A DNA stretch of 64,000 bases from the NCBI GenBank assembly GCA_034521595.1, contig JAXHMG010000003.1, forward strand, positions 2,784,001 through 2,848,000, written 5' to 3'. Below, piece by piece: positions 30,236-46,823 of this stretch (position 1 is the stretch's first letter; each line of letters begins with the position of its first letter). A model generated the notes under the pieces. That model was not told where the DNA came from and did no database searches. It saw nothing but the letters and a program-made list of their open reading frames with translations. The stretch is from Gemmatimonadota bacterium (GTDB lineage Bacteria > Gemmatimonadota > Gemmatimonadetes > Longimicrobiales > Gaopeijiaceae). A program made the translations under genes and the position numbers.

Positions 30236-30284
30236 GGGGGTGCTCGGGAAACTCCAGGGTGTGGCACGGCGGGCGAGGGTCGTC

Positions 30285-30698
30285 CTACGCCCCCCTGGGC
30301 AACAGCCTCGGCCTTCCGACCAACTCCATCGCACCGAAGTCCCGCTCGTCCAGCGTCACGATGGCATGCGCGCCGAGTCGCTCGGCCACCGCGGCGACCA
30401 CGGCATCCACCAACCCGATATCGAGATCGACATACCGCGAGCAGAGCTCGTGGGCTCGATGCAGATCGTCCGGCGTGCCCCACTCGACGACAAAGAGCCC
30501 CTCGGCAAGATCCGTCCTCCAGGCGGAGCGAGCCGTCCGGCCGAGGTAGCGGCCGACCAGGTAGTCGACCTCCGGAAGGATCGCCCAGGGCAGGATCCAG
30601 TCCGCCCCGCCGTCGTCGTAGAGGTCACGGATGGCTCGGTGGTGACGGTCACTCCCGTCGATGAGCGCCACCAGAGCGCCCGTGTCGGCGACGATCAC
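30285..30698 (-). CDS. PIN-domain toxin (VapC family)
   Basis: MIVADTG, LPEV, GLVDA and TLDERDF acidic PIN residues. Confidence 0.88.
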   Translation of the reverse strand: MIVADTGALVALIDGSDRHHRAIRDLYDDGGADWILPWAILPEVDYLVGRYLGRTARSAWRTDLAEGLFVVEWGTPDDLHRAHELCSRYVDLDIGLVDAVVAAVAERLGAHAIVTLDERDFGAMELVGRPRLLPRGA

Positions 30699-30934
30699 CG
30701 GGTATCACGGCCCATGTCGTCGAGCCGATCCTCGGAGCGCTCTGCGAGGTCGCCGCTCCGGCTTCGCCCGGCCCCGATGCTCGATGGACGTCGCGCAGGG
30801 GGCCCCTTACGCGCGTACTCCGAAACCGCTTCCCGGACGAGCTCAGCCGCCGACCGGCCCTCGGTCTCGGCCTGAGCCTTCAGCCGGTGATAGTCGGACC
30901 GATCCAGGTAGACCGTCGTCTTGATCGTGGCCAT
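30695..30934 (-). CDS. Ribbon-helix-helix (CopG-like) antitoxin
   Basis: KTTVYL...RSAAELVREAV; overlaps the PIN gene. Confidence 0.85.
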   Translation of the reverse strand: MATIKTTVYLDRSDYHRLKAQAETEGRSAAELVREAVSEYARKGPPARRPSSIGAGRSRSGDLAERSEDRLDDMGRDTR

Positions 30935-30938
30935 AAGG

Positions 30939-30952
30939 TACCATATATGGTA
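30939..30952. promoter_or_regulatory. Perfect palindrome, candidate TA operator
   Basis: TACCATATATGGTA 4 bp upstream of the antitoxin ATG. Confidence 0.6.
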
Positions 30953-30995
30953 TATGGCATTCTATCAATTCGTGCTGGACTCGTCCGAAGCAGCA

Positions 30996-31159
30996 TCACC
31001 GAATGGCGCGCACGGCCGCCCCGGTAGCCAAGTCGACGAGCATCGCCGCCGTGAAGCTGAGGAGCGTACCGATGAGGAGGCAATACGCCAAGAAATACCG
31101 ACGCCCGTGCGGGTCGCCGTCCGATCGATCTGGAACACGAAGTCCGCCAACAGATGTCC
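30996..31159 (-). pseudogene. Internally deleted DUF3307-like remnant
   Basis: GHLLADFVFQ in one frame and YCLLIGTLLSFTAA...stop in another. Confidence 0.45.
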
Positions 31160-31211
31160 GGCGTGGCGCGCCATGCGGGTCGACCCGGGGATCACCCTCC
31201 GCGAGGACTGA
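31158..31211 (+). pseudogene. 3' tip of an ADOP/MacB-like permease
   Basis: PAWRAMRVDPGITLRED-stop resembles the PARRASRVDP terminus of the permease at 24132. Confidence 0.55.
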
Positions 31212-31283
31212 ATTCGACTAGGGTCGGTAGCGTCCGACCCTTCGGCTCGGTGAGCGTCGATGGCCCGTCGGACATGGGTCGTG

Positions 31284-34200
31284 TCACTCCCGAAGAACGC
31301 GGTGGATGATGTCCAGGAGCGTGTCGGCGGTGTAGGGTTTGGGCAGGAAGTGCTCCACTCCCGAACCGAGAGCCCGCATCACGCGGCCGGTCGCCCCGAT
31401 CCCGCTCGCGCCGATGATCTTCACCTCGGGGTTCATGCGCTTCAGGGCGTGTACGGTGGCGGGACCATCCATGATCGGCATGACCATGTCGGTGAGCACG
31501 ACGTCGATCTCCTCGCTCATCCGGCCGTAGATCGCGACCGCGTCGGCACCGTCGGCGGCGGTGACCACCCGGTACCCGAATGCCTCGAGCGTTTGCCGGG
31601 TGATGTCACGGATCGAGCTTTCGTCATCGATGACCAGAACGGTCTCCCCGTTGCCGCGCGGGGCTTCTTCCCCATCCCGAGCCGGGGACCGGGTGTCGTC
31701 GGAGTCCAGGGCGGCGGGAAAATAGAGTCTGAAGGTGGTTCCGGTGCCGGGCTCCGAATACACGTTCACGAATCCGCCGTGGCTTTTCAGGATTGCCGCG
31801 ACGGTGGACAAGCCGAGGCCCGTTCCTTTGCCGACCTCCTTCGTCGTGAAGAACGGATCGAAGACCTGGGACGCGACGTCCTGCGGCATTCCGGTGCCCG
31901 TGTCCACGACGGAGACCCGGACGTGCGGACCCGGCGATGCGGCGTGGGCCATGGACGCGTAGTGCTCGTCCAGCTCCGCGTTCTCGGCGGTCACCGTAAT
32001 TCGGCCGCCGTCCGGCATGGCGTCCCGGGCGTTGACCAACAGGTTCATAAAGACCTGGTGGACCTGGGTGGGATCGCCGCGGAGGGGCCAGAGATCGTCC
32101 GGTACCTGCCGGACCAAGGTGATGTTCTTCGGAAAGGTGTCCCGCACGATGCGCTCCATGTCGGCGAGCGTGCGCTCCAGGTCCACGACGAGATCGGCAC
32201 GGTCGACGCCCCGGGCGAACCCGAGCACTTGTTGGACCATATCGGCGCCCCGCTGCGCGCTCGATTCGATGGCGAGCAGGGTCTCGGTGAGCCCAGGGTC
32301 GTCGATCTCCTCCTTCAGGAGGCCGATGGATAGGAGGATCGGCGCGAGCACGTTGTTCAGGTCGTGGGTGATGCCCCCGGCCAGGGTCCCGATGCTCTCC
32401 ATGCGCTGGGCCCGGAGGAACTGCTGGAGGAGCTTCTTCCGCTCCGTGATGTCGGTGTTGATGACCAGGATGCGATACGGCTCACCGTTCTCGTCACGCA
32501 CAAGGGACCACCGCCCTTCGACGGTGACGATCGACCCGTCCTTGCGCTTGTGATCGAGCTCTCCCGACCATTCACCCTGTTCCAGCACGGCGGTCGTGGC
32601 CTCGTCGAAGCGGACGGGGTCTTCGTAGAGCAAGTCGCGTATAGACCTGCCCCACACCTCATCCGGACTCCACTGATAAAGGCGCTCCGCCCCGGCGTTC
32701 CAATACACGACGGAGTGGTCGAGCTCACGCACCAGAATCGCGTCCTGGGCCCGGTCCAAAAGCTCCGCTTGCTCCCGGAGCCGGAGCTCCGCCCGGCGTT
32801 CCGCGGTGACGTCCCGGAAGTAGACGGCGAGACCCTCGGAGGACGGGTAGGCCCGGATGTCGAACCACCGGTCGCGGGGTGGACAGAACTGCCGGAACTC
32901 GACGCTTCGTGACTCTTCGACAGCTCGCCGGTACTCCACGTCCGCTTTCGTGCCTTTGGCCTCGGGGAAGCGGTCCCAGACCTCTTGGCCGAGCAGCTCG
33001 TCCCGGGAGCGCTCGAGGACGCGCTCGGCCTCGGAGTTCAGGAAGGTGAAGCGCCAGTCACGGTCGAGCATGTAGAAGGCGTCGGTGACGCTCTCGAGGG
33101 TCGTAGCGAAGCGACGTGCCAACGCCTCCGCTTCCCGCCTGAGCTCCATCTGGTCGTGGATATCGATGGCAGAGCCGTACCACTTCACGAGGTTCCCGTC
33201 GCGGTCACGAAAGGGGATGGCCTGCGTGAGATGCCACCGCCAGGCACCGTCGTGGCGACGGATCCGGAACTCCATACGGTAGGTGTCTCCGGTCTCGACG
33301 CTATGGCGCCACGCCTCCGTCGTCCGGGCACGGTCGTCGGGGTGGATGAGCTCCAACCATCCGTCGTCCGCCAGGTACTCTTCCGTGACACCGCTGTATT
33401 CGTGCATGCGCCGGGTCTGGTAGTCGATCCTGCCGTCCGGCTCGGCACTCCACACGACCAGGGGGAGGGACTCGGCTACCTGGCGGAAGCGGCGGTCGCT
33501 CTCCCGTAAAGCTTCCTCGGCTGCCTTGAGGTCCTGTATGTCCTGGAACGCGCCTTGCACGCTCCGGATGACCCCCTGTTCGTCGCGCACGGCTTCCCCG
33601 ATCTCACGCACCCAACGCAGCGCACCATCCCCTCGAACGATCTGGAGGATTTCGTCGAAGGGCTCCCCGTCCGTGGCGCACCGTCGGAAGCGATCCTCGA
33701 TGAGGCCACGCCATTCCGGCGCGTAGAACTCGAAGGCCTCCTCGATGGTCGGCGCGTAGCCGGGCGGCATCCCGTGGAGCAAGGCGACCTCGTCCGACCA
33801 GGCGGTCCGCTCGGGATCCATATCCACACGCCACCCCCCGATGAGGGCCATGCGCCCGATGACCCCCAGCATGCGCTCCCGCTCGGCCAGACGGCCCTCC
33901 ACGGCGCGTCGGTGCGTCACGTCCTGGAAATAAACCGCCAGCCCTTCGGTCGAGGGATACGCGCTCACCGAGAACCAGCGTTCCAGAGGGGGATAGAAGG
34001 CCTCGAAGGTAACGCTGCTGTTGTCCTCGAGGGCCCGGTGGTATTCGGTGTAGAACGGGGAGCCTACCGCCTCGGGGAACTCGTCCCACACGATGTTTCC
34101 CAGGAGCTCTTCCCGCCGGCGCTCGAGCACCCGCTCGGCCTCGGAGTTGAGGAAGGTGAAGCGCCACGCTCCGTCCAGGGTGAAGAAGGCGTCGGTGATG

Positions 34201-34724
34201 CTCTCCAGGGTGGTGGAGAGGCGACGGGCGAGGCCTCTCGCCTCCTCGTTGGCGCGCACCTTGCCGGTAGTCTCCGTCACCACCACCAGCACCCCTTCGA
34301 TATCGCCGTCGTCTCCCCTCACCGGGCTGTAGCTGTAGGTCCAGTAGGCATCCTCGAGCCTTCCGTTCCGTTCGATAGGGACCAGTTGGTCCTCGTGCCA
34401 GGTCGCCCGTCCTTCGTGCATGACCTGGTCGACCTGCGGTCCGATGACGTCCCAGATCTCGGTCCAGCAGTCTCGAGCTCGCTGCCCGAGAGCGGCGGGA
34501 TGCCGGCTGTCCTCGCCCAGGCTCGGGCGGTAGGCGTCGTTGTAGATCTGGACGAGCTCCGGCCCCCACAACAGGACCATGGGGTGCCGTGACTCGAGGA
34601 CTGTCCCGACGGTGATCCTGAGGCTCGTAGGCCACTGGTCGGGCGCCCCGAGGGGCGTCGACGCCCAATCGTGGCGGCGGCAGCGGGCGGCCATCTCGCC
34701 GGAGCCGGGGAAGATCTGTTGCAC
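31284..34724 (-). CDS. Cytoplasmic multi-PAS hybrid histidine kinase
   Basis: DWASTPLG N-domain, several PAS/PAC units, GGITHDLNN, GKGTGLGL and a C-terminal REC (TDMVMP, LPKPY). Confidence 0.92.
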   Translation of the reverse strand: MQQIFPGSGEMAARCRRHDWASTPLGAPDQWPTSLRITVGTVLESRHPMVLLWGPELVQIYNDAYRPSLGEDSRHPAALGQRARDCWTEIWDVIGPQVDQVMHEGRATWHEDQLVPIERNGRLEDAYWTYSYSPVRGDDGDIEGVLVVVTETTGKVRANEEARGLARRLSTTLESITDAFFTLDGAWRFTFLNSEAERVLERRREELLGNIVWDEFPEAVGSPFYTEYHRALEDNSSVTFEAFYPPLERWFSVSAYPSTEGLAVYFQDVTHRRAVEGRLAERERMLGVIGRMALIGGWRVDMDPERTAWSDEVALLHGMPPGYAPTIEEAFEFYAPEWRGLIEDRFRRCATDGEPFDEILQIVRGDGALRWVREIGEAVRDEQGVIRSVQGAFQDIQDLKAAEEALRESDRRFRQVAESLPLVVWSAEPDGRIDYQTRRMHEYSGVTEEYLADDGWLELIHPDDRARTTEAWRHSVETGDTYRMEFRIRRHDGAWRWHLTQAIPFRDRDGNLVKWYGSAIDIHDQMELRREAEALARRFATTLESVTDAFYMLDRDWRFTFLNSEAERVLERSRDELLGQEVWDRFPEAKGTKADVEYRRAVEESRSVEFRQFCPPRDRWFDIRAYPSSEGLAVYFRDVTAERRAELRLREQAELLDRAQDAILVRELDHSVVYWNAGAERLYQWSPDEVWGRSIRDLLYEDPVRFDEATTAVLEQGEWSGELDHKRKDGSIVTVEGRWSLVRDENGEPYRILVINTDITERKKLLQQFLRAQRMESIGTLAGGITHDLNNVLAPILLSIGLLKEEIDDPGLTETLLAIESSAQRGADMVQQVLGFARGVDRADLVVDLERTLADMERIVRDTFPKNITLVRQVPDDLWPLRGDPTQVHQVFMNLLVNARDAMPDGGRITVTAENAELDEHYASMAHAASPGPHVRVSVVDTGTGMPQDVASQVFDPFFTTKEVGKGTGLGLSTVAAILKSHGGFVNVYSEPGTGTTFRLYFPAALDSDDTRSPARDGEEAPRGNGETVLVIDDESSIRDITRQTLEAFGYRVVTAADGADAVAIYGRMSEEIDVVLTDMVMPIMDGPATVHALKRMNPEVKIIGASGIGATGRVMRALGSGVEHFLPKPYTADTLLDIIHRVLRE

Positions 34725-34889
34725 GTAGGCACCGGGGTGAGCGTTGGGGAGGGGCTATGCTCCCCTGAGTATTGCTCGTCGTTGGACGAAGGGCAAAGGT
34801 ACCGATGTGCTCGGGGCCCAGGCAGCGCGCATTGCACCACCCGTCAGGGATATCTACCGTGTGCAAAGCCATCCGCCCCCCAGCAGCGT

Positions 34890-35597
34890 TTGACCTTGAC
34901 CCTCTCCGACGCCAAGACCTCGCACCTCGCCCCGGAAGCCCCACACGCGGAGCTTGCCCGGAGCTACCTCGAACACCTCCTGGCGGGACGCCGGACCGAG
35001 GCGGGCGACCTCGTGCTGGACGCCGTCCGCGCGGGAACCCACGTCAAACAGGTCTACCTCCACGTCTTCCAGCCCGTACAGTGGGAGATCGGTCGGCTCT
35101 GGCAGACGGACCGGATCAGCGTGGCGAAAGAGCACTTCTGCACCGCCGCCACCCAGTTGATCATCTCGCAACTCTACCCATGGGTGTTCTCGGGAGTGCG
35201 CGAACGGGGCACCATGGTCGCGACGGCCGTGCCGGGCGAGTTGCACGAGCTGGGCATCCGGATGGTCGCCGACTTCTTCGAGATGGCGGGATGGGAGACG
35301 GCCTACCTCGGCGCGAACGTTCCGGCGGACGGCGTTGCGCAAATGGTCGACGAAAAGGCGGCGGACGTGTTGGCGGTGTCCGCCTCACTCCTCGAGCACG
35401 TCGATGCGGTCCGGGAGGTCGTGGATACCGTGCGGGCGCTCCCGGGGCGCGACGACCTGATCATTCTGGTGGGCGGACACCCCTTCAACGCGGACCCCGA
35501 GCTCTGGCGAAGCCTGGGCGCCAACGGCTACGCCCACGATGCGGAGCAAGCGGTGGCACGGGCCGAGGCGATGGTGCCGGGGCGAGGTGCGTCATGA
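34890..35597 (+). CDS. Stand-alone cobalamin-binding protein (CarH/AerR-type B12 domain)
   Basis: EIGRLW-x9-EH, GELHELG, YLGANVP, VGG and GANGYA. TTG start uncertain. Confidence 0.88.
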   Translation: MTLTLSDAKTSHLAPEAPHAELARSYLEHLLAGRRTEAGDLVLDAVRAGTHVKQVYLHVFQPVQWEIGRLWQTDRISVAKEHFCTAATQLIISQLYPWVFSGVRERGTMVATAVPGELHELGIRMVADFFEMAGWETAYLGANVPADGVAQMVDEKAADVLAVSASLLEHVDAVREVVDTVRALPGRDDLIILVGGHPFNADPELWRSLGANGYAHDAEQAVARAEAMVPGRGAS

Positions 35598-36517
35598 CGG
35601 ACGACGGTAAGGAAGCACCCGACTCGGACCGGTGGACGGAAGGTCTGATGCGGATCAACAACGAACAGGCGAACGAGCTTCGGGAGACACGCAGGGCTCT
35701 CGAGCGTGGCCGCGCGGGCGAGTCGATGTCGGAGGAGGCGCTATTCGACGAACTCACGCGGGTCAACAACGACTTCGCCAATCTCCAGCGAGAGCTCGTG
35801 CGCGCGAACACCCGTCTCCAACAGCTCAATGAAGAGAAGAACCGCTTCCTGGGGATGGCCGCCCACGACCTCCGGACTCCACTCGGCGTGATTTCGAGCT
35901 ATGCCGAATTCCTCGAGGAGGAGGCGACGGAACGCCTGACCGAGGAGGAGGTCCATTTCGTCCAGTTGATCCGCCGCACGGGTGATTTTCTGCTACGCAT
36001 GGTGAACGAGCTCCTGGACGTGGCGAGCATCGAAGCGGGGCGTCTCGAGCTGCGAGTGGGAGAGTCGGACCTGATGTCCCTGGTGCGGAACACCGTGCGT
36101 TTGATTTCGCCCATCGCCGCGGCGAAGTCCGTGGAGCTGAAGGTGGCGGACACGACCGAGATCGAGCCGTTCTACTTCGACCCGGACCGGGTGGAACAGG
36201 TGCTACACAACCTGCTCGGCAACGCCGTGAAGTTCTCCGAGAAGAATGACGTGGTGAATGTGCGGCTCGATCAGGACGGTGACGACGCCTGGGTGCACGT
36301 CGAGGACGAGGGCGTGGGCATCCCGGAGGATCTCCAGTCGCAACTCTTTCAGCCATTCGGCGGAGCGAGTCGCCCCGGGACGGCCGGCGAGGAAGGCACC
36401 GGGCTCGGACTCGCCATCGTTCGCCGCATCGTGGAGGCCCATGGCGGGGTCGTGCGCGTGAAGAGCCGAGTCGGAGAAGGGACGACGTTCAGCTTTTCGC
36501 TCCCCTTGGTCCGGTGA
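35594..36517 (+). CDS. Histidine kinase with coiled-coil N-terminus
   Basis: ELTRVNNDFANLQREL, AAHDLRTPL, NAVKFS and GTGLGL; ATGA overlap with the B12 gene. Confidence 0.9.
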   Translation: MTDDGKEAPDSDRWTEGLMRINNEQANELRETRRALERGRAGESMSEEALFDELTRVNNDFANLQRELVRANTRLQQLNEEKNRFLGMAAHDLRTPLGVISSYAEFLEEEATERLTEEEVHFVQLIRRTGDFLLRMVNELLDVASIEAGRLELRVGESDLMSLVRNTVRLISPIAAAKSVELKVADTTEIEPFYFDPDRVEQVLHNLLGNAVKFSEKNDVVNVRLDQDGDDAWVHVEDEGVGIPEDLQSQLFQPFGGASRPGTAGEEGTGLGLAIVRRIVEAHGGVVRVKSRVGEGTTFSFSLPLVR

Positions 36518-37185
36518 TCGCGGCGCAAAGGCCCGAAGGGCGGGCCGCACGCATCCTTCTCGTCGACGACGCGCCGGACCGGGTGCTCCTGGTCTCCCGC
36601 ATCCTGAGCGAAGCCGACCACCGGGTGTGGACCGTCGGCTCGGGAGAAGCGGCCCTGGAACGTCTCGACGAGGTCGCACCCGATCTCGTGCTTCTGGATG
36701 TCGTGCTTCCCGGGATGTCCGGGCTGGCCACGTGCCGCCACATCCGGAGCTCGAGAGCGGGCCCCCGAATACGCGTCGTGCTCTTCTCGGGGCTCGCAAT
36801 CACGTCCGAGACGCAGGCCGAAGGGATCGAGGCCGGTGCCGACGGCTACCTCACGTGGCCGTTGTCCCAAAGGGAGCTTCTGGCGCGGGTCGACCTCGCG
36901 TTACGCACGACCCGCACGGATCCAACAGTGCGTCCGGAGACTCCGCCTGATTCCCCCGCGCCCCGACCTCGAACCGCCATCGGCGTCCCCATCCTCACGC
37001 CACGCCAGGAGGAAGTGGTGGCGCTCGTGGCCGCAGGGCGCACATCGGCGGAGATCGCAGCCCTGCTCGACATCGCCCCGGGCACGGTCGAGACGCATCG
37101 CAAGGCCGCCATGCGTCGCATCGGAGCACGGTCGACGGCCGAGCTCGTGCGTTACGCGCTCCTGAACGGCATCGCGCACGTTTGA
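36514..37185 (+). CDS. Response regulator, REC plus LuxR HTH
   Basis: LVDD, LLDVVLP and LTPRQEEV...TVETHRK. Confidence 0.88.
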   Translation: MIAAQRPEGRAARILLVDDAPDRVLLVSRILSEADHRVWTVGSGEAALERLDEVAPDLVLLDVVLPGMSGLATCRHIRSSRAGPRIRVVLFSGLAITSETQAEGIEAGADGYLTWPLSQRELLARVDLALRTTRTDPTVRPETPPDSPAPRPRTAIGVPILTPRQEEVVALVAAGRTSAEIAALLDIAPGTVETHRKAAMRRIGARSTAELVRYALLNGIAHV

Positions 37186-37317
37186 CAGAGCTCGGCCGAC
37201 GACCTACCCGTTTCTGGGTATAGAAGGGAGCGGCGGCATCTCGTACCTTCCGGCATGCCCGTCGGCCATGTCCCATCGAGGCACGGCCGCAGCCCCCCAG
37301 GCGAATCAGAGCGAAGC

Positions 37318-37602
37318 GTGACCACACCCACCATCGTCCTCAAGCTTTACGTGGCGGGACAGACGCCGCGAACCCGGGCGGCGCTGGAGAACCTCGAGTG
37401 TGTCTGCAAGGAAGCGCTCGAGGATCAGTGCGAGATTCAGGTTATCGACGTCCTCGAGCACCCACAGCTCGCGGAAGACGAGAAGATCTTGGCCACGCCC
37501 ACCGTGATCCGGGAACTTCCCCCACCTTTGCGGCGGGTCATCGGCGACCTCTCGGAGAAGGAAAAGGTCCTCATCGGACTCGACCTCGTCACGAAGCCAT
37601 AG
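37318..37602 (+). CDS. kaiB: Circadian clock protein KaiB
   Basis: LKLYVAG, IDVLEHPQLAEDEKILATPT, LPPPLRRVIGDLS and KVLIGLDL. Confidence 0.95.
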   Translation: MTTPTIVLKLYVAGQTPRTRAALENLECVCKEALEDQCEIQVIDVLEHPQLAEDEKILATPTVIRELPPPLRRVIGDLSEKEKVLIGLDLVTKP

Positions 37603-37641
37603 TAAGCCACGGTCGCGCCTCGCCCCCAACCCCAGCGCACA

Positions 37642-39150
37642 ATGCAAGACACCGGTAGCGTCGAGAAGCTACGCACCTTCGTTCCCGGCCTCGACCATGT
37701 GGCTGGAGGGGGCATTCCGGCGGGCCGCACCACGTTGGTGAGCGGCACCGCGGGAAGCGCCAAGAGCACCCTGGCAGCCCAGTTTCTCGCGGGAGGCATC
37801 CGGGAGGCAGGCGAACCGGGAGTCTTCGTGACCTTCGAGGAGCCACCCGCGGACCTCAGGCGTAACCTGATCTCTTTCGGCTGGGACGTGGCGCGCTGGG
37901 AGAACGAGGACCTCTGGGCGTTCGTCGATGCGTCCCCGGAGCCCGAGGACGATGCGGTCGAGGCCGGCTCCTACGACATGGGCGCGCTCCTGGCCAGGAT
38001 CCGGCACGCGGTCGAACGTGTCGGGGCGAAGCGGGTGAGCATCGATTCCATCGGGGCCGTGTTCACCCAGTTCGAAGACAGCGCTACGGTGCGTAGGGAG
38101 TTGTTTCGGATCTCCGCAGCGCTCAAGCGGATGGAGCTCACGGCCATCCTCACGTCCGAGCGCTCCGAGGAGTACGGCTCGATCTCACGCTACGGTGTGG
38201 AGGAGTTCGTCGCCGACAACGTGATCGTCCTCCGCAACGCCCTCGCCCTCGACCGAAGGCGCCGCACGCTCGAGATCCTGAAGTTCCGTGGCACGACGCA
38301 TTACAAGGGTGAGATCCCGTTCACGGTCGTCGGAGAGAGAGGCGTCGTCGTGATCCCGCTCTCCGCCCTCGAGCTCACCCACCGCTCGACGTCGACCCGG
38401 ACTCCATCCGGCAGTCCAGACCTGGACACGATGTGCGGCGGCGGGTTTTTCCGTGACTCGATGATCCTGGTGTCGGGCGCGACCGGGACGGGAAAGACAC
38501 TGCTCGCGACTGAGTTCATCGAGGGTGGCGTGGAGGAGGACGAGCGCTGCCTACTGTTCGGATTCGAGGAGAGCCCGGACCAACTCCGGAGGAACGCCTC
38601 CGGGTGGGGCGTCGATTTCGCGAGCATGGAGCAGGACGGGCTCCTGCGCCTCGAGTGCCGTTATCCGGAGACCGCCGGACTGGAGGACCATCTGATCGCC
38701 ATTCGCGAGGCCGTGGAAGACTTCAAGCCCGCGCGCGTCGCCGTGGACAGCCTGTCCGCGCTCGAGCGTGTCTCGACGGAGCGCGCGTTCCGCGAGTTCA
38801 TCATCGCCCTGACGTCCTTCCTGAAGAGCCAGAACGTGACGGGATTGTTCACCGCGACCTCCCCTAATCTGCTCGGGGGATCGTCGGTGACCGAAGCCCA
38901 CATCTCGACCATCACCGACTCCATCATCCTGCTCCGCTACGTCGAGTCGTACGGTGCGATCAAGAGGGGGCTGGCCGTGCTCAAGATGCGCGGCTCGCCT
39001 CACGACCATAATATACGTGAATTCATGATCGACGGAGCAGGCATGCACATCGGAGACTCGTTCCAGCACGTGACCGGCCTTCTGGCCGGCCACCCCGAAT
39101 ACGGGGCCCCGAACGACTCCGGAGCGCCGGGGCCCCGCCCAACCTCGTGA
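37642..39150 (+). CDS. kaiC: Circadian clock protein KaiC (double RecA-like domain)
   Basis: CI GTAGSAKS/FEE, GVEEFVADNV; CII GATGTGKT/FEES, HISTITD phospho-site and LKMRGS. Confidence 0.96.
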   Translation: MQDTGSVEKLRTFVPGLDHVAGGGIPAGRTTLVSGTAGSAKSTLAAQFLAGGIREAGEPGVFVTFEEPPADLRRNLISFGWDVARWENEDLWAFVDASPEPEDDAVEAGSYDMGALLARIRHAVERVGAKRVSIDSIGAVFTQFEDSATVRRELFRISAALKRMELTAILTSERSEEYGSISRYGVEEFVADNVIVLRNALALDRRRRTLEILKFRGTTHYKGEIPFTVVGERGVVVIPLSALELTHRSTSTRTPSGSPDLDTMCGGGFFRDSMILVSGATGTGKTLLATEFIEGGVEEDERCLLFGFEESPDQLRRNASGWGVDFASMEQDGLLRLECRYPETAGLEDHLIAIREAVEDFKPARVAVDSLSALERVSTERAFREFIIALTSFLKSQNVTGLFTATSPNLLGGSSVTEAHISTITDSIILLRYVESYGAIKRGLAVLKMRGSPHDHNIREFMIDGAGMHIGDSFQHVTGLLAGHPEYGAPNDSGAPGPRPTS

Positions 39151-39164
39151 GATAGACGATACTC

Positions 39165-41408
39165 GTGCAGCCCACGGACACACCCGCCGGAAGACAGCCT
39201 GCCGAAGGCGCCGCGCGCATCCTCGTGGCCGACGATCGTGCCCCCACGCGAGAAGCCGCGATGCGGATCCTCTCGAAGGCTGGATTCGACGTGCGTGGCG
39301 CCGAAGACGGACCCGGTGCCCTCGAGAGCATCGAGTCGTGGGGTCCGGACCTGGTCCTGCTCGACGTCGTCATGCCGGGTATGGACGGCCTCGAGGTACT
39401 CGAGCGAGTACGGGCACGGTTCGAGTTCGCGGATACCGTGATGGTGCTTCTCAGCTCCTTTCGTCTGAGCCCCGAGGACCAGGCGAAAGGGCTCGAAGCC
39501 GGCGCTGACGGCTACATCGCACGACCCGTAGATCATCAGGAGCTGCTGGCACGGGTACGTACGCACCTCCGTACCCAGCAGCTGGCACGCGAGCTGAGGG
39601 CGAGCGAGCAACGCTTCCGGGACCTCCTCGACAACCAGCCCGATGGCGTGTTGGTCGTGGACGAAGCCGGGATCATCCAGTTCGCGAACCCGGCAGCCGA
39701 GAAGCTGCTGAGTCGGCCGGCACGCGAGCTCATCGGCACGGACTTCGGCTTCCCCCTCACGGCGGGCGCCGAGACGGAGCTCGATCTCACGTCCTCCGAG
39801 GGCACCCGGGTGGTCGCCATGCGCGTCGGCGACACCACCTGGGACGGGCGAGCGGCCTGGCTCACGACGCTGCGCGACGAGACCCAGCGCCAGGCCGCGG
39901 CGGAACGCATGGCCGAACAAGCGGAGCTGCTCGACCGCGCTCAGGACGCCATCTTCACCTTGAACCTCGACGGGACCATCCGGTTCTGGAACGAGGGCGC
40001 ACAGCACCTCTACGGGTGGCCTCCCGACGAAGTGGAGGGCCAGTCCGTGCATACCCTGCTCTTCCCGAGCCCACAGGAAGGGGAGGTCATCATGGCTCAG
40101 GTGCTGGAGCAGACGGACTGGCGGGGAGAGATGGAGCAGTGTCGTCGTAATGGGAGCACCGTCACGGTCGAGGGCCGATGGTCCGTGGTCCCCGACGAGA
40201 ACGGCGAACCGGCGCGTATCCTGTGCGTGAACACGGATGTGACGGAACAGAAGGAGCTCCTGAGCCAGTTTCTGCGAGCGCAGCGGATGGAAAGCGTGGG
40301 GAGGCTCGCCGGCGGGATCGCCCACGATTTGAACAACGTTCTGGCCCCCATCTTGATGTCCATCGAGATGCTCCAGGAGGACACGGTCGACCCCGAGACG
40401 CTCGAGATCCTCGCCACGGTCCAGGAGAGCGCCCAGCGGGGCGCCGACCTCGTCAAGCAGGTCTTGCTCTTCTCCCGGGGCGTGGGAGGGGCCCGCATCG
40501 CCGTGGACGTGGCCAAAACGCTACAGGACCTCGGAAGGGTGGTCCGAGACACCTTCCCGAAGACCATCCAGCTCGAGTCCCGCATTCCGGACGACCTCTG
40601 GAAGATCAAGGGCGACCCCACGCAGATCCATCAGGTCTTCATGAACCTGTTCGTGAACGCACGGGACGCCATGCCGCAAGGAGGCCGGCTTCGCTTGGAA
40701 GCGGCCAACATGACGCTCGACGAACAGTACATGGCCATGATTGGCGAGGCCACCGCCGGGCCGCATGTCCGGGTCACGATCACCGACACCGGCGTCGGAA
40801 TGAGCGCGGAAGTGCTCGAGATGGCCTTCGAGCCCTTCTTCACCACGAAGGAAGTGGGGAGCGGAACGGGCCTCGGCCTGTCGACGGTCGCGGCCATCAT
40901 CAAGTCCCACGGGGGACTCATGAACCTCTCGTCGGAGCCCCGGAAAGGGACAACCTTCCAGGTTTTCCTCCCCGCCGAGCAGAGTGAAGCGACGGTCGAG
41001 CCCGCGAGCCCTCCGGTCGAGCGCCTCCTGGGATGCGGCGAGCTCATCCTCGTCGTTGATGACGAACGCTCCATCCGAAGCATCACGCAGCAGACGCTCG
41101 AAGCGTTCGGTTACAGAGCCGTCACGGCGTTGGACGGCGCCGACGCACTGGCCGTCTACGGCATGCGCGGCCAGGAGATCTCGGCAGTGCTCGTGGACAT
41201 GATGATGCCCGTCATGGACGGGACGACCACCATCCGGGCGTTGCGCCGGATCGATCCGGACGTCCCGATCCTCGCATCGAGCGGCGTGGCCGAACACAGT
41301 GAGGTTGCACGCATGGATGAGCTCGCTGTCGGCTACTTCCTTTCGAAACCCTACACTGCGACGGATCTGCTCACGGCGCTCAAGGAAGTGCTGCCGGACG
41401 CAGAATGA
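39165..41408 (+). CDS. Hybrid histidine kinase REC-PAS-PAS-HisKA-HATPase-REC
   Basis: N-terminal LLDVVMP, FANPAAE, FWNEGA, GGIAHDLNN, GSGTGLGL and VDMMMP. Confidence 0.92.
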   Translation: MQPTDTPAGRQPAEGAARILVADDRAPTREAAMRILSKAGFDVRGAEDGPGALESIESWGPDLVLLDVVMPGMDGLEVLERVRARFEFADTVMVLLSSFRLSPEDQAKGLEAGADGYIARPVDHQELLARVRTHLRTQQLARELRASEQRFRDLLDNQPDGVLVVDEAGIIQFANPAAEKLLSRPARELIGTDFGFPLTAGAETELDLTSSEGTRVVAMRVGDTTWDGRAAWLTTLRDETQRQAAAERMAEQAELLDRAQDAIFTLNLDGTIRFWNEGAQHLYGWPPDEVEGQSVHTLLFPSPQEGEVIMAQVLEQTDWRGEMEQCRRNGSTVTVEGRWSVVPDENGEPARILCVNTDVTEQKELLSQFLRAQRMESVGRLAGGIAHDLNNVLAPILMSIEMLQEDTVDPETLEILATVQESAQRGADLVKQVLLFSRGVGGARIAVDVAKTLQDLGRVVRDTFPKTIQLESRIPDDLWKIKGDPTQIHQVFMNLFVNARDAMPQGGRLRLEAANMTLDEQYMAMIGEATAGPHVRVTITDTGVGMSAEVLEMAFEPFFTTKEVGSGTGLGLSTVAAIIKSHGGLMNLSSEPRKGTTFQVFLPAEQSEATVEPASPPVERLLGCGELILVVDDERSIRSITQQTLEAFGYRAVTALDGADALAVYGMRGQEISAVLVDMMMPVMDGTTTIRALRRIDPDVPILASSGVAEHSEVARMDELAVGYFLSKPYTATDLLTALKEVLPDAE

Positions 41409-41420
41409 ATCGATGTGTGG

Positions 41421-42707
41421 TCAGCCGGTAACGCGGCCTCCGACCTGCTCGGCGGACCACTCGAGCAGCTCGTGCACTGCCTCGACCCACGCGTCGGAGA
41501 AACGTTCGCTGTCCGTAAACCAGGCCTGTACGGAATCGAGCGCCCCAACCACACCCCCGCGGTCGTCCGCCACGGCGGCGGCGAGCACCGTCCCCGCGCC
41601 GGGAATGCGGCCGCGCTCATTTTCGGGAAGACTCCGCGTGAAATGTTCGTCGGCCACGGCGAGCCCGTCGTCATCCATGAACCGGGTCCGCATGTCCCGC
41701 AGCGTCTTGGCGGCCGAGGCGAGCGAGGCGTAGCGACCGGGAGTCGCCGTGGAAACGTGCGCGACCAACTCATCGTGGAGCAGCTGCAGATGGCGCTCCA
41801 GGAGGAGTAGCGGCATGCCTCTCGCGGCCAACACGTGCCCGAGCCAGAGCACCCGCTCGATCGCCCTCGACTCGGGGATCCGGGCCAGCGTCACGAGCCA
41901 CGCGCTGTCGCTGCGAGTGAACGCGAGCCCTCGGTCGCCGTATCGCGCCGCGTAGTACGGGAACGCGTCCCATGACCGCTCGCCCGCCCGCAACGCGACG
42001 TCCAGCTCGTCGTCCTCGACCGTCACGCGATGTGTGCCGGCCTCCGGGTTCAGCTCGAGAGCGGGAACCCACGCCGTCGTATCCGGAACCGGATGGATTA
42101 CGCTCATGACCGCCTCGATGCCCTCGAAGACCACGAGCGCCGCTTCGCCCGCTTCCTGACGCTCCCCTTCCGAGACGGACGTACCGTCGAGCCGCTCCAC
42201 GAAGCGAGCCCATTCGGGGCTCGCCTCCTCCTCTCGGCCGAAAAAGAACGTCAAGTCCCGCTTGTTGTAGGCGCCCGGACCGCGAACCATGCCCTGACCC
42301 AGAAGTCTCCCTCCGAGAAGGGACCCTCGAAACGTATAGAGGCAGCCGAGCAGACCCCCCGCCCGAGCCGGATCCATGCGGCGGATGCGATGCGCCAGCA
42401 GGTGCGCCCGGACCTCCGCGAGCGAACAGGTTTGCGGTCCCTCCGAGCCGAGCGTCTCCAGGTCACGGGCGGCCAGTTCGGAACGCGACAGGGAGGCCTG
42501 CTTGAACGGCTCGATGCGCGGATCCGTCGCCGCTTCGAGGAGCTCTTCGAAGCTCCGCCAGATCGTGCGCATGGCACGTAGATAGGTCACCAGCGCATCG
42601 GCCGGAAGCGTCCCCTCTCGCAACGCCGTAGCGGAAGGAAGCGCATCGAGGCGCTCATGTGTCTCACGCGTCTCGGACTTGAGCCGATCTCTGAGGCCAG
42701 ATGTCAT
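41421..42707 (-). CDS. Biliverdin-producing heme oxygenase fused to a helical (putative globin-like) domain
   Basis: RLKSETRETH proximal His, Y-x-x-x-GSLLGG and W..F...LD, then about 200 extra aa (FPYYAARYGDRG...). Confidence 0.78.
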   Translation of the reverse strand: MTSGLRDRLKSETRETHERLDALPSATALREGTLPADALVTYLRAMRTIWRSFEELLEAATDPRIEPFKQASLSRSELAARDLETLGSEGPQTCSLAEVRAHLLAHRIRRMDPARAGGLLGCLYTFRGSLLGGRLLGQGMVRGPGAYNKRDLTFFFGREEEASPEWARFVERLDGTSVSEGERQEAGEAALVVFEGIEAVMSVIHPVPDTTAWVPALELNPEAGTHRVTVEDDELDVALRAGERSWDAFPYYAARYGDRGLAFTRSDSAWLVTLARIPESRAIERVLWLGHVLAARGMPLLLLERHLQLLHDELVAHVSTATPGRYASLASAAKTLRDMRTRFMDDDGLAVADEHFTRSLPENERGRIPGAGTVLAAAVADDRGGVVGALDSVQAWFTDSERFSDAWVEAVHELLEWSAEQVGGRVTG

Positions 42708-42911
42708 GGGTCCTTCAACAGGGGTTCCGCCAGAACAGCGGTCTTCGGTACCGTGCAGCCGCGACATCATGATGTCAACGCAAACCGACTCGACACGCAA
42801 CGGGAGGCAAGTGAAGCGGGATGGGAGAAGGCACGGGGGACGGAGGATAGCGAGCGATCGCGCAACACAATACATTGCGCCACTGACTTCGTCCTACCCG
42901 AGGAGGAGCCC

Positions 42912-43271
42912 ATGCCCGCCGTTCCCGACATCCAGCCCCTCGAAACCCGGACCGCGTCCCACCTCGACACCCTGCGGCACATCTTGGGCTCCGACCGCGC
43001 CATCGCCGAGTTGCTGGAGGTGTCGCCGTCGCAGGTGTCGCGGTGGCGACGGGGGCAGGTGCCGGACGACGAGAACGCCGACCGGCTCGGCGGCCTCGCG
43101 CTCGTGGTGGAGATGCTCGCGCGGTGGCTCCACCCGGACACCATCGAAGGGTGGCTTCACGGCCCGCACCTCCATTTGAACGACCGAACCCCGGCTCATC
43201 TGCTTCGCCAGGGCCGGGTGGCGGACGTGATCGGCGCGCTCGAAGCCGAAAAGGCCGGCGTCTTCGGTTGA
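42912..43271 (+). CDS. Xre/MbcA/ParS-type antitoxin
   Basis: HTH (AELLEVSPSQVSRW) and WLHGPHLHLNDRTP; AGGAGG RBS. Confidence 0.85.
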   Translation: MPAVPDIQPLETRTASHLDTLRHILGSDRAIAELLEVSPSQVSRWRRGQVPDDENADRLGGLALVVEMLARWLHPDTIEGWLHGPHLHLNDRTPAHLLRQGRVADVIGALEAEKAGVFG

Positions 43272-43281
43272 GCGCCCGCAC

Positions 43282-43887
43282 GTGAGCGCCCGCACGCTCT
43301 GGCGGGTCTTTCCCTGGGACGAGCGCGCATCCGAAGGAGACCGGTTCTCCCCTTCCTTCGTCCCCCCGCCGACCGGGCGAGGCCGGTTCGACCTGCCCCA
43401 CGACATCTCGCGGGTCCTCTACCTGGCCGAGAGCCCCGAGCACGCGGTCGCCGAGCTCCTGCACCCCTGGCGGGGCCGGAGCGTGGATGCTCGCCACCTG
43501 GTGCGCGCCGGACGCCCGCTGGCCGCGGTAGAAGTGCAGGTGGACGAGGACCGGAGCGGGACGAAAGTGGCCGACCTCTGCGAGCCCGACGTCCTCGTCG
43601 CGCTCGACGTCGCGCCCGACCGGACCGCCTCGAGGCACCGCACGCTCACCCAACCGATCGCACGCACCGTCTGGGACGCGGGGTTCGCGGGCCTGCGGTG
43701 GTGGTCGCGCTTCTGGGGCGACTGGCACACGACCGTGCTCTTCACCGCCCGGCTGGAGGAGGGAGTGGCGGAGCGCGGAGGCGGGGTCGCGCGCCCGCTC
43801 AGCTTCGGGACCCCCGAGCCGCTCACCCCCACATCGCCCGCCGTCGCCGAAGCGGCGCGGGCGTTGGGGATCGCGGTCGAGGGCTGA
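43282..43887 (+). CDS. RES domain toxin
   Basis: LWRV, GRFD, LYLAES...AVAE and GLRWWS. Confidence 0.85.
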   Translation: MSARTLWRVFPWDERASEGDRFSPSFVPPPTGRGRFDLPHDISRVLYLAESPEHAVAELLHPWRGRSVDARHLVRAGRPLAAVEVQVDEDRSGTKVADLCEPDVLVALDVAPDRTASRHRTLTQPIARTVWDAGFAGLRWWSRFWGDWHTTVLFTARLEEGVAERGGGVARPLSFGTPEPLTPTSPAVAEAARALGIAVEG

Positions 43888-43993: not shown

Positions 43994-44554
43994 ATGGCTG
44001 TTCGTTTTGCGTCCGACGACCCCGGCGCGCTCGAGACCGTTCTCTCGATTCTGCCGCAGTTGATCCTCATCGTCGACGAGGAGCTGACCCTCCGCTACAT
44101 GAACCGGCCGCAAGGCGGATATCGGCCGGACCAGGTGGTCGGCATGAGCATCTTCGAGGTCGTCGACCCGGAGTATCGCGACGAGGTGCGCAGCCTCCTC
44201 GAGGGTGTGTTCGCTTCCGGGGAGCCCGCGGTCTACGAGGTCGCGGCGCTCAATGCCCAGGGCGAGCGGCAGTGGCACGAAGGTGTCATGCTGCATCTTC
44301 CCGGTGAGGACATGGAGCCCACGGTCGTCATCTCCACGACGAACGTGACGGAGCGGCGGCAACTCCAAGAGGAGGCGGCGACGCTGCGGTCCCTCATCCC
44401 CCTGTGCTCCTGGTGCAAGCGGGTCCGTACGGACAGCGGCTACTGGGCGACCGTGGAATCCTACCTCGAACGGGCCGGGAAGTCCCGGGTCACCCACAGC
44501 CTCTGCACGACCTGCGAGGCCACCATGCTCGACGCGGCGTCCGGGGATCGCTGA
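43994..44554 (+). CDS. PAS protein with C-terminal Cys-rich domain
   Basis: PAS (RYMNR, VVGMSIFEVVDPE) followed by IPLCSWCKRVR...GYW...THSLCTTC. Confidence 0.78.
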   Translation: MAVRFASDDPGALETVLSILPQLILIVDEELTLRYMNRPQGGYRPDQVVGMSIFEVVDPEYRDEVRSLLEGVFASGEPAVYEVAALNAQGERQWHEGVMLHLPGEDMEPTVVISTTNVTERRQLQEEAATLRSLIPLCSWCKRVRTDSGYWATVESYLERAGKSRVTHSLCTTCEATMLDAASGDR

Positions 44555-44677: not shown

Positions 44678-45100
44678 TCAGTCGGTGGAAGAAGCGAGCG
44701 TGGCCAAGAGTTGCTTGGGTGTCACGACGGGGATCGAGGAGGACTGGAAATCGGACGGGTTCCGAGTCACGAGGTAGTCCGCGCTCGCGCGCTGAGCGGA
44801 TACACCCTGAACCGCGTCCTCGACGTCGCCCCAGCCCAGGGAGAGTGCCCGAAGGAGGACGTCCTGATCCAGGGGCGTCACCGTGACGTGATCTAGAAGG
44901 TCGATGAGAGCCGCCACAGCGCGTTTGTGACCGAGATGCTTGGAGGCGAGGTAGTAGAGCGTCGTCACCGAGTGGGCCGCGACAAGCCCTTCGACCTCGA
45001 TGCCGTCCAGGAGGGAGAGCACGGTCGCGGAATCCTCCACCCACGGCTCCCGAGCCGCCAGGACATCGAGGATGACGTTGATGTCCAGGAAGAGGCGCAT
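44678..45100 (-). CDS. PIN-domain toxin
   Basis: FLDINVILD, DVEDAVQ and VTRNPSDF. Confidence 0.88.
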   Translation of the reverse strand: MRLFLDINVILDVLAAREPWVEDSATVLSLLDGIEVEGLVAAHSVTTLYYLASKHLGHKRAVAALIDLLDHVTVTPLDQDVLLRALSLGWGDVEDAVQGVSAQRASADYLVTRNPSDFQSSSIPVVTPKQLLATLASSTD

Positions 45101-45342
45101 CAGGAATGCTTCTGCTCGAGGTGGCGCCGGTAGTCTTCCACGGACGTATCGCTCGGCAGGATGCCGCGAAGCCGCCGCACCCACGGAGCCAATGTCGGCT
45201 CGGATGGAGCGTCGAGTTGGCGCAGGTAGGAGGTGACGAGTTGGGAAATGCTCGTGTTGTGCCGAGTGCTGTAGCGGCGGGCCCGTTCGATCACCTGCTC
45301 ATCGACGCTGAGAGTGAGCTTTTTCTTGGAAGTCATCATCAC
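45100..45342 (-). CDS. DUF6364-like RHH antitoxin
   Basis: KKLTLSVDEQVIERARRY...SISQLV; abuts the PIN gene. Confidence 0.82.
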   Translation of the reverse strand: MMMTSKKKLTLSVDEQVIERARRYSTRHNTSISQLVTSYLRQLDAPSEPTLAPWVRRLRGILPSDTSVEDYRRHLEQKHS

Positions 45343-46593: not shown

Positions 46594-46823
46594 AGGACAC
46601 ACGTGGGCTGTGTTGGAGCAGGGAGGTGCTCGGAACGCCTTGGGGGGGGCAGCCTCAGTTTACCCATAGCGCCGCCCGGGGCCATGACGCCGTCGGATCG
46701 GAGGGATTCCGTGCTCCAGCGGTCTCGATCCACGCACCGCACCCCCACCCCGGGTGGCGTGAACGCCCCACCCCCCACAGATTGACGAAGATTAAATTAG
46801 GTGTCCCTCAATCTGGAGGTACC

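Follow-up and report, generated by a model that had tools for sequence, protein, structure and literature searches.

The window, a stretch of 64,000 nucleotides from a Gemmatimonadota bacterium, contained a gene block of 12.7 kb (approximate limits 30240..42990, including a PIN gene at 30285-30698) in which all eight open reading frames were present, intact and free of stop codons. The forward strand carried a stand-alone B12 domain of the CarH/photocobilin type (34890..35597; B12-binding_2 and B12-binding, ~235 residues), a sensor-less histidine kinase (35594..36517; HisKA-HATPase with His91 and a coiled coil with RINNE/RVNN repeats), a response regulator composed of a REC domain (Asp62) and a LuxR helix-turn-helix (36514..37185), KaiB (37318..37602; 94 residues), a double-domain KaiC (37642..39150) and a hybrid kinase of the order REC-PAS-PAS-HisKA-HATPase-REC, with Asp67 in the N-terminal REC (39165..41408). 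On the reverse strand, this run was flanked by a divergent multi-PAS hybrid histidine kinase of 1146 residues (31284..34724; five PAS, HisKA, HATPase and REC) and by a convergent gene (41421..42707) for a heme oxygenase (residues 1–208) fused to a photoglobin (residues ~229–342) and a C-terminal helical extension.

The start of the B12 gene was placed near 34890/34896, not at 34671. The B12 gene and the kinase gene overlapped by the 4 bp ATGA (35594-35597), and the kinase and REC-LuxR genes by the 4 bp GTGA (36514-36517); both overlaps were real. The gaps that followed were 132 bp between REC-LuxR and kaiB, 39 bp between kaiB and kaiC, and 14 bp between kaiC and the hybrid kinase. The co-oriented run and its two flanking genes, as laid out in the preliminary description, were borne out by these open reading frames and domain calls. 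Contigs assembled independently from a public run, which may stem from the same sample as the window genome, matched positions 31083-36504 and 37172-39318 with no differences and no gaps.

The block was absent from the same site in a genome of the same genus, where an amidohydrolase match was followed after ~170 bp by an Xre/RES match. The multi-PAS kinase at 31284..34724 belonged to the inserted block and had no conserved counterpart at this position in the related cassettes described below. No terminal repeat longer than 9 bp was found at the block ends, and a promoter and terminator scan gave results at chance level.

The B12 domain and the heme oxygenase–photoglobin fusion

The B12 protein was composed of a four-helix cap (PF02607, E 2.7e-13) and a Rossmann B12 domain (PF02310, E 2.4e-22). 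Its top PDB match was the photocobilin 8J2W; AppA-SCHIC and AerR were matched more weakly. Motifs G68-x-x-W71, E81-H82, G116-x-x-H119 and G141-x-x-x-P145 corresponded to all four elements of the signature GxxW, EH, GxxH and GxxxP, which has been experimentally validated for light-sensing B12 domains (PMC11796333) and was invariant in 23/23 aligned homologues. The light-sensing type proposed earlier for this domain was thus upheld at the level of its motifs. The motifs W-x9-EH and E-x-H were shared with the photocobilins SasPcob (8J2W/8J2X) and AbDPcob (8J2Y), as were the biliverdin-binding Asp and Trp positions of the photoglobin (PMC10979010).

The B12 protein lacked the N-terminal globin carried by most of its close homologues, and no globin domain was found upstream of it or elsewhere in the window genome except in the heme oxygenase fusion. 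A homologue search with the B12 domain gave 3470 sequences. Photocobilins in the strict sense are single polypeptides with both the B12 domain and the photoglobin, whereas in the window the two were encoded by separate, convergent genes, with the globin fused to a heme oxygenase. Photocobilins regulate a partner enzyme, and stand-alone ones did so in trans (Zhang et al. 2024, PMC10979010); the predicted partner in the window is a histidine kinase beside kaiBC. Orthologues of this kinase lie behind photocobilin genes elsewhere, and have an N-terminal segment of ~100 residues that is missing here. The window genome also encoded an adenosyltransferase and two further strong B12-domain matches, and no phytochrome was found in it. 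A rhodopsin search of the genome gave no match, and neither did its positive control.

The heme oxygenase domain (PF01126, E 4e-13) was aligned with HmuO (Z 24.4, rmsd 2.1, 200 aligned residues). It contained the proximal His17 and a Gly-rich distal helix with G128 and G132, and Arg127 at a position where 26/36 homologues have Glu. By fold and key residues, it is predicted to be a biliverdin-producing heme oxygenase. The second domain matched the photoglobin of 8J2W with E 1.6e-7, using a globin profile of 18 rows including seven photocobilin N-terminal globins. The best structural match of the fusion outside heme oxygenases was again 8J2W (Z 10.8, a middling value for a helical fold; rmsd 2.5, 108 aligned). 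These matches assign the domain to the globin folds akin to 8J2W and the phycobiliproteins. Residues D267, W288 and R296 were invariant in 36/36 homologues and T264 was kept in 34/36; T264 and D267 aligned with the C-x-x-D of other photoglobins, which have Cys, Ser or Thr three residues before the Asp. Together, the B12 gene and the fusion gene appear to encode a split photocobilin that comes with a biliverdin source of its own.

The bilin-making partner named in the preliminary description was confirmed in part. A bilin domain of the photocobilin type was present, namely the photoglobin, which that description had not recognised, but the conserved partner of the kai genes was this globin and not the heme oxygenase, the fused form adjoining this KaiC type in this window only. 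Moreover, the fusion gene, being convergent, cannot be co-transcribed with the B12–kai run. A survey of the photoglobin family already contains a heme oxygenase–photoglobin fusion, stand-alone globins next to B12 domains and an association with two-component systems; the words 'kai' and 'circadian' do not occur in its main text (Schneider et al. 2021, PMC8717448).

An input set by redox conditions or by the state of cofactors (B12 form, heme/biliverdin, oxygen) in place of light, acting on a stress-type Kai module without a timing role, appears improbable. The weaker matches to AppA-SCHIC and AerR and a host without detected phototrophy would agree with such an input. So would the heme oxygenase, whose turnover requires heme, oxygen and a reductant. 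The biliverdin-binding BBAG-2 globins are relatives that are photoinert on their own (PMC10151467), and roles independent of a clock have been put forward for Kai proteins of other bacteria (PMC11372060). However, the complete validated light signature was present without variation among the aligned homologues, and the genomes with the full cassette were all phototrophs (5/5).

KaiC class and the absence of KaiA

The KaiC of the window scored 612.6 bits with TIGR02655 (cut-off 546), and 668 bits to the ancestral KaiC-beta, 572 to KaiC1 and 316 to Rhodobacter KaiC. The phosphosites S422/T423 (ST) and the catalytic EE pairs were kept, the Walker A motif was GTAGSAKS, and E385 and R432 were KaiC-beta-like, whereas the C-terminal tail helix was absent. 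With its double domain, ST sites and greater nearness to KaiC1 than to KaiC2, the protein is KaiC3/group III-like in sequence.

The KaiB2C2 hourglass of Rhodobacter sphaeroides (8DB3/8DBA/8FWI) is also a KaiA-less kaiB/kaiC pair adjoining a PAS kinase. Its KaiC2 has SS sites and a coiled-coil tail and the hourglass is reset by ATP/ADP, not by a photoreceptor, whereas the window KaiC had ST sites and no coiled-coil tail, in the order kaiB-kaiC. None of the features that define the KaiB2C2 class (KaiC2 sequence, SS sites and coiled-coil extension, as given in PMC5520375 and PMC11372060) was seen in the window KaiC. The hourglass precedent put forward earlier was a KaiC2 case, and it is not directly applicable to a KaiC of this type (668 against 316 bits).

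In KaiC trees, the window protein was the sister of Acetobacteraceae KaiCs with moderate support (92/91 in one tree, 87 in another), and it nested, also with moderate support and in a tree without a named KaiC3 reference, among KaiCs linked to kaiA3. It was 64–68% identical to its relatives, with a branch of 0.55 compared with 0.01–0.21 in its sisters. The tail helix was kept in 8/8 scored KaiA3-linked KaiCs; among 11 scored KaiCs without kaiA3, five had no tail helix and six had a different one. The helix is thus a weak marker, and its use as a mark of KaiA3 partners only partly holds. A frameshift as the source of the odd tail was rejected; the independent contigs over 37172-39318 showed no difference.

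No match to Pfam KaiA was found in the window genome, which is 93.25% complete, and a custom KaiA3-like profile gave none (best E 0.14). Pfam KaiA also misses KaiA3-like proteins, as a single-sequence PDB search missed KaiA, so the custom profile is the relevant test of absence, not Pfam alone. The lack of kaiA first noticed in the window, together with that of photosynthesis genes, extended to this 93%-complete genome. Photo_RC had no match there either, and the host showed no detected phototrophy.

Related cassettes in Acetobacteraceae

The order B12 sensor-kinase-globin-kaiB-kaiC recurred in another phylum, in five phototrophic Acetobacteraceae, which argues that the grouping did not arise by chance. 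Among 121 relatives of the genome G402, five had the same order with a KaiA3-like gene, and all five carried the B12 gene and reaction-centre genes. The KaiA3-like protein of one cassette genome was identical to a protein of Rhodovastum atsumiense. KaiA3-like genes, encoding a REC domain with a KaiA-like C-terminus and lying upstream of kaiB, were located at L027, L029, L032, L063, L068, L145 and L146. For their KaiA-type domain, the top matches were KaiA in a profile search (E 1.8e-4), as were the top three in a fold search (Z 9.4, 9.3 and 8.8).

The slot filled by this receiver–KaiA fusion in the Acetobacteraceae was occupied by the receiver–LuxR protein in the window. The window receiver scored 72–84 bits against seven KaiA3-like receivers and 66 against the best REC of its own genome outside the block; by sequence, the receivers of REC-LuxR and of the KaiA3-like proteins are closest kin. 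The N-terminal REC of the hybrid kinase belonged to the same subfamily. The earlier description 'without kaiA' therefore stands for this genome, but as a derived state. Linkage of kaiBC in other genomes extended to the B12 gene, the kinase and the globin; a link to the heme oxygenase was seen here only. In a further genome (G239), the order was photocobilin-kinase-kaiB-hybrid kinase, with neither KaiA3 nor a KaiC that matched. The hybrid kinase of the window was 50% identical over 744 residues to the kinase behind that kaiB.

The KaiA3-KaiB3-KaiC3 system of Synechocystis PCC 6803 has the same KaiC type, its order kaiA3-kaiB-kaiC is shared by the related cassettes, and its KaiA3 combines, like the KaiA3-like proteins, a receiver with a conserved Asp and a KaiA-like bundle, whereas the window has no KaiA3 (Koebler et al. 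2024, PMC11372060). In the sections of that report drawn on here, the cognate kinase of KaiA3 is stated as not identified and no photoreceptor input is named.

A circadian oscillator in the window that sustains itself and is entrained by light, through a KaiA-independent KaiC or a kaiA3 missing from the assembly, is very improbable. Oscillation has been observed for group III KaiCs combined with their cognate KaiB and KaiA3 (PMC12081879), and the genome is only 93% complete, but a KaiA-like domain was not found in it and the kaiA3 slot held another gene. At three positions, the window KaiC also had the states associated with arrhythmicity in KaiC-beta, Ser being missing at Se48 and Glu and Arg standing at Se394 and Se441, respectively. 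These states were shared by the KaiA3-linked relatives, and mark the group without proving arrhythmicity.

Most KaiC3-type loci were without B12 genes, and many photocobilin–kinase loci were without kai genes. A B12 or globin gene was found at 0/15 other KaiC loci of the phylum. At 14 B12 loci in relatives, kai genes were missing at 13 and kaiC at all 14, and the photocobilin–kinase loci of Azospirillum lacked kai genes. In overlapping Acetobacterales-wide samples only the seed genome had the cassette (1/251, 1/201 and 1/151), which is thus rare. No B12 gene was present at the KaiA3 locus L154 or with the plasmid KaiC matches L151 and L152. Distant KaiC-like ATPases close to a globin or B12 gene (L015, L045 and L150; 142-263 bits) were excluded as support. 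In a first tree, the kai-linked B12 domains formed an exclusive clade (support 99). This clade was weakened once 30 homologues of unknown context were added, and the window and Acetobacteraceae B12 domains were then no longer sisters.

Photocobilin–kinase pairs without kai genes bear on a rather doubtful reading, in which photocobilin, kinase and LuxR regulator form a functional light switch and KaiB and KaiC are uncoupled passengers, the link having run through the replaced KaiA3. KaiA3 was not found, the KaiC lacked the tail helix of the KaiA3-linked proteins and had a long branch, and the kinase and B12 protein were likewise short of domains. Nevertheless, kaiB, kaiC and the hybrid kinase were intact and closely spaced, the KaiC retained 64–68% identity to its relatives together with its catalytic and phosphosite residues, and the tail is a weak marker. 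In G239, moreover, KaiB is still flanked by the same two kinases, with KaiA3 and a matching KaiC both missing.

A possible light input to KaiB–KaiC

An even chance is given to the reading that the block represents a light-sensing phosphorelay cassette travelling with a KaiC3-type module, of which the window would have a derived form that lacks KaiA3. Without light, the B12 domain carrying AdoCbl would be a dimer; green light would cleave the Co–C bond and open it, as the chemistry of photocobilins suggests for a protein with these motifs. The heme oxygenase domain would produce biliverdin and fill the fused photoglobin, and the loaded photoglobin may dock on the B12 domain in trans, adding red-light sensitivity. 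Depending on whether it is lit or dark, the B12 domain would then toggle the sensor-less kinase directly downstream, as gene coupling and conservation suggest. This kinase would phosphorylate one receiver subfamily, to judge from the kinship of the receivers. In the Acetobacteraceae a KaiA domain is attached to the receiver, so that KaiA3 activity and, with it, the phosphorylation of KaiC would be governed by light. In the window, receivers of this subfamily are joined to a LuxR DNA-binding domain and, separately, to the hybrid kinase behind kaiC. In the weakest step, KaiC and KaiB without KaiA3 might form a switch or memory that is slow and driven from outside, with KaiB binding and release by KaiC probably gating the hybrid kinase. 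The window system is probably a driven switch rather than a self-sustained clock.

The clock of Synechococcus is reset indirectly, through ATP/ADP and the quinone redox state. The cassette points to a direct light input to a bacterial protein timer, and its kinase is a candidate for the KaiA3 kinase. Tentatively, a photocobilin-controlled kinase would be the missing KaiA3 kinase of anoxygenic phototrophs such as Rhodovastum atsumiense, and the window the same input rewired after loss of KaiA3, with a self-supplying heme oxygenase–photoglobin, driving a KaiB–KaiC light-memory switch in a non-phototroph. Both a candidate KaiA3 kinase and a candidate light sensor are found in the related cassettes. 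One of their KaiA3-like proteins has the same sequence as its counterpart in a cultured purple bacterium, so that about six purified proteins could serve to rebuild the pathway. The putative split photocobilin joins its globin to the enzyme that makes the pigment, an arrangement of interest for red/green optogenetic kinases. Sharing the input and the type of receiver but lacking KaiA3, the window offers a natural comparison.

Organization and insertion of the kaiBC block

The region was composed of eight intact genes. A divergent five-PAS hybrid kinase (31284–34724, − strand) was followed by a + strand run of genes for a B12-binding protein (34890–35597), a sensor-less histidine kinase (35594–36517), a REC-LuxR regulator (36514–37185), KaiB (37318–37602), KaiC (37642–39150), and a REC-PAS-PAS-HK-REC kinase (39165–41408), and a heme oxygenase (HO) fusion (41421–42707, − strand) converged on this run. 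The 4-bp overlaps claimed in the preliminary description for the B12, histidine kinase, and response regulator genes were present among the first three + strand genes. Contigs of a public run labelled 'salt pan metagenome', perhaps the sample of origin, matched the window at 31083–36504 and 37172–39318 with zero differences. A small PAS protein (43997–44554, + strand) and a PAS-histidine kinase (45469–46602, − strand) were located just outside the block. The B12 protein, the HO fusion, and kaiC were each single-copy in the window's own genome (3.49 Mb, 93.25% complete). The reported absence of kaiA extended to this genome, in which neither a KaiA nor a KaiA3-like domain was found, and the same held for photosynthesis, as no reaction centre was found genome-wide. 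Phytochrome was also not found in this 93.25% complete genome.

The B12 gene was found in none of six same-genus genomes, and the window-type KaiC in none of 69 same-family genomes. In one comparison genome (G657), the flanking amidohydrolase was followed after ~170 bp by the Xre/RES pair, and thus the whole 12.7-kb block, with the HO fusion and the divergent kinase in it, was missing there as one unit. The block had a GC content of 66.2%, lower than the 69.7% and 68.1% of its two flanks. Terminal repeats of the block were not found. Three toxin-antitoxin-type modules (PIN, 30285–30698; Xre/RES, 42825–43887; PIN, 44678–45342) surrounded the block, which is typical of a variable insertion site.

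The putative split photocobilin

The best PDB match of the window B12 protein was SasPcob (8J2W, E 8.4e-20), and all four motifs of an experimentally validated light signature (PMC11796333) were present in the alignment. Its homologues were mostly ~350 aa among the 120 matches listed, and a globin-type N-terminus, present in 6/6 homologues inspected at sequence level, was missing from the window protein. A PduO-type cob(I)alamin adenosyltransferase was located ~40 kb from the cassette (C3:2868072–2868572), and two other strong B12-domain matches in this genome were read, by size, as probable MetH and a mutase subunit. Sensing of cofactor or redox state as the input, in place of light, is unlikely in our judgement.

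The HO fusion family gave 49 matches among 8000 candidates, of which 36 were aligned. In the predicted model (pLDDT 93.5), residues 4–206 matched HmuO (Z 24.4), and residues 229–342 had 8J2W as the best non-HO structural match (Z 10.8, r.m.s.d. 2.5, 108 aligned), followed by allophycocyanins. An 18-row globin profile matched solely 8J2W, 8J2X, 8J2Y, and, weakly, allophycocyanin in the PDB. Residues D267, W288, and R296 were invariant in 36/36 rows; Arg127 of the window fusion corresponded to Glu in 26/36 rows, and the proximal His was absent from four of the 36 homologues. The window sensor appears to be a split photocobilin, with the B12 protein and the HO-globin encoded separately, and the two may bind each other. 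In photocobilins, both coupling of biliverdin to B12 and control of an enzyme in trans have been demonstrated (Zhang et al., PMC10979010).

An HO-photoglobin fusion was previously listed by Schneider et al. (PMC8717448), who also described stand-alone globins adjoining B12 domains and two-component genes; the term 'kai' does not occur in the main text of that paper. Related globins, BBAG-2, were photoinert when alone (PMC10151467). Other HO-photoglobin fusions (L001, L002, L004–L006, and further loci) often had no B12 gene inside the fetched flanks, and because of this the fusion may have its own role, for example in storing bilin or detoxifying heme.

KaiC class and linkage to B12 genes

The window KaiC passed TIGR02655 and retained both EE pairs and S422/T423. 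Its scores were 668 bits for 8ZN5, ~572 for cyanobacterial KaiC, and 316 for the Rhodobacter protein, represented by entries 8DB3, 8DBA, and 8FWI. Glu at Se394 and Arg at Se441 were common to the window KaiC and 8ZN5, Ser at Se48 was missing, and the KaiA3-linked relatives matched the window KaiC at all three positions. The similarity to 8ZN5 and cyanobacterial KaiC, the ST sites, and the context point to the KaiC3/group III class; class features were as given in PMC5520375 and 10.1101/700500. The KaiC phylogeny proposed earlier, built with no named KaiC3 among its rows, placed the window KaiC as sister to Acetobacteraceae KaiCs (support 92/91, 22 rows), as did a 23-row tree (support 87) from which L032 and L063 (partial) and L015 and L045 (distant) had been omitted. 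The entry 8ZN5 is a reconstructed, arrhythmic KaiC-beta, and oscillation of group III KaiCs was seen only when their cognate KaiA3 was present (PMC12081879). A self-sustained clock is very improbable here in our judgement.

The preliminary description had joined kaiBC to both a B12 gene and a bilin-making enzyme. The B12 link recurred in Acetobacteraceae and, with kaiB only, in G239, a genome of the window's family, whereas the HO-fused globin was found beside this KaiC type solely in the window. The globin-family scan yielded 37 genome and 40 metagenome loci. The order B12 gene, kinase, stand-alone globin, response regulator, kaiB, and kaiC was found in three of the genome loci (L027, L029, and L032, Alphaproteobacteria), with KaiC 68% identical to that of the window, and two metagenome loci (L063 and L068) followed this order as far as a contig end. 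The photocobilin gene of L027 (7972–8656) and kaiC of L032 (12001–13462) were each broken over two frames, by assembly error or as pseudogenes.

The 'response regulator' of these cassettes was a fusion of a receiver and the KaiA C-terminal domain. Pfam did not detect this KaiA domain; a 9-row profile had KaiA as its top five PDB matches (best E 1.8e-4), and the top three structural matches of the model were KaiA (Z 9.4, r.m.s.d. 3.5, 105 aligned; 9.3; and 8.8). The KaiA3-like gene was found in five genomes in a search of 121 relatives of G402. The newly found G717 and G718 combined it with the B12 gene, kinase, globin, kaiB, and kaiC. In G717, the KaiA3-like protein was identical to WP_162530416.1 of Rhodovastum atsumiense, the B12 protein (236 aa) was globin-less like that of the window, and a hybrid kinase sat between the kinase and the globin. 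Gln occupied the Asp position in the fused N-terminal globins of L029, L032, and L146 (3/3 aligned), which would fit a separate globin taking over. Reaction-centre genes, and a heme oxygenase at another site, occurred in all five KaiA3-like cassette genomes.

Three features of the Acetobacteraceae set were missing from the window: the segment at the N-terminus of the kinase, the KaiA domain, and the tail helix of KaiC. This helix was present in 8/8 scored kaiA3-linked KaiCs; the 11 scored KaiCs without kaiA3 had another helix (six) or none (five, including the window). Loss in the window, and not gain in Acetobacteraceae, is moderately supported by the tree.

The close B12 subtype was found in 2/401 phylum genomes, the window's own and G239, each time beside kaiB. 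In G239 (L125:5868–11032), the order was ABM, photocobilin, kinase, kaiB, and REC-PAS-PAS-HK-REC; KaiC was not matched there in the search of phylum genomes, and the ABM monooxygenase might supply the tetrapyrrole in place of HO. A second KaiB-like ORF in the window's genome (C3:155190–155519, − strand) was divergent; a REC-PAS protein came directly after it, the kinase matches further downstream were weak, and KaiC was absent from the vicinity. Because KaiB was paired with REC-PAS without KaiC at both loci, the arrangement suggests that KaiB acts on REC-PAS kinases.

The window-type KaiC occurred in 15/400 other phylum genomes, with no B12 or globin gene in any of these loci (4–20 kb, some incomplete) and a kaiA3-like gene in four. 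Among 14 B12 loci of relatives (from 13/80 genomes), one had kaiB and none had kaiC. The B12 protein matched 11 plasmid records; of three loci examined, two from Azospirillum contained photocobilin and kinase without kai, and one from Skermanella had kai limited to a distant KaiC-like ATPase. The Azospirillum thermophilum plasmid (NZ_CP029356.1; L148:8599–10893) carried photocobilin and this kinase type close to a cluster of flagellar genes, and represents a tractable control system, cultured and in a non-kai context. One of 251 genomes of the phylum of G404 had a kaiA3-kaiB-kaiC locus, and the B12 gene was absent there. REC-KaiA3-like genes, missed by Pfam KaiA, were located upstream of kaiB-kaiC at L105, L107, L108, and L154 with no B12 gene nearby, and at L097 (8026–8907, genome G078) a PAS-like N-terminus replaced the receiver in this position. 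The kai-linked B12 domains fell inside one 37-row group (support 91) in a tree with 30 added homologues of unknown context, yet were not sisters. The five Acetobacteraceae genomes count as about one event because they are kin. On this evidence, photocobilin and kinase form the core module, with kai as one among its partners. Uncoupling of the Kai proteins from this module in the window's genome is rather unlikely in our judgement.

Proposed signal path

The window REC-LuxR receiver scored 72–84 bits against the seven KaiA3-like receivers, 82 bits against the window hybrid kinase receiver, 77 bits against the regulator that follows the sensor-less kinase type in two other loci (L044 and L045), and ≤66 bits against other receivers of its genome, in a comparison of 94 matches, 44 of them from that genome. 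Among the kinases, one clade held 11/39 rows, nine of these from cassette loci. The cognate kinase of KaiA3 was stated as not yet identified by Koebler et al. (PMC11372060).

From the observed domains, motifs, gene order, and kinship, we infer the interactions, the light response, and any timing. Light would act on AdoCbl of the B12 protein, biliverdin in the HO-globin would broaden light sensing, and the light state of the sensor would switch the adjacent kinase, which would phosphorylate the receiver subfamily shared by REC-LuxR, the KaiA3-like proteins, and the hybrid kinase; we rate this path at about even chances. A receiver-KaiA fusion would give light direct control over KaiC phosphorylation. 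For the window, the predicted targets of the receivers are the LuxR regulator and the hybrid kinase, with KaiB-KaiC as a putative slow driven switch.

Every part has been published already, and we did not find their coupling in the literature. Full-text searches, covering few subscription papers, gave matches unrelated by title and abstract for KaiC/KaiB with cobalamin, and no published match for Rhodovastum with KaiC; among the matches listed, none joined KaiC with adenosylcobalamin or with Gemmatimonadota. On these searches, the proposed B12/bilin input to a KaiA3BC-type module is new, and the Rhodovastum-type cassette offers the best case for testing it, ahead of the window.
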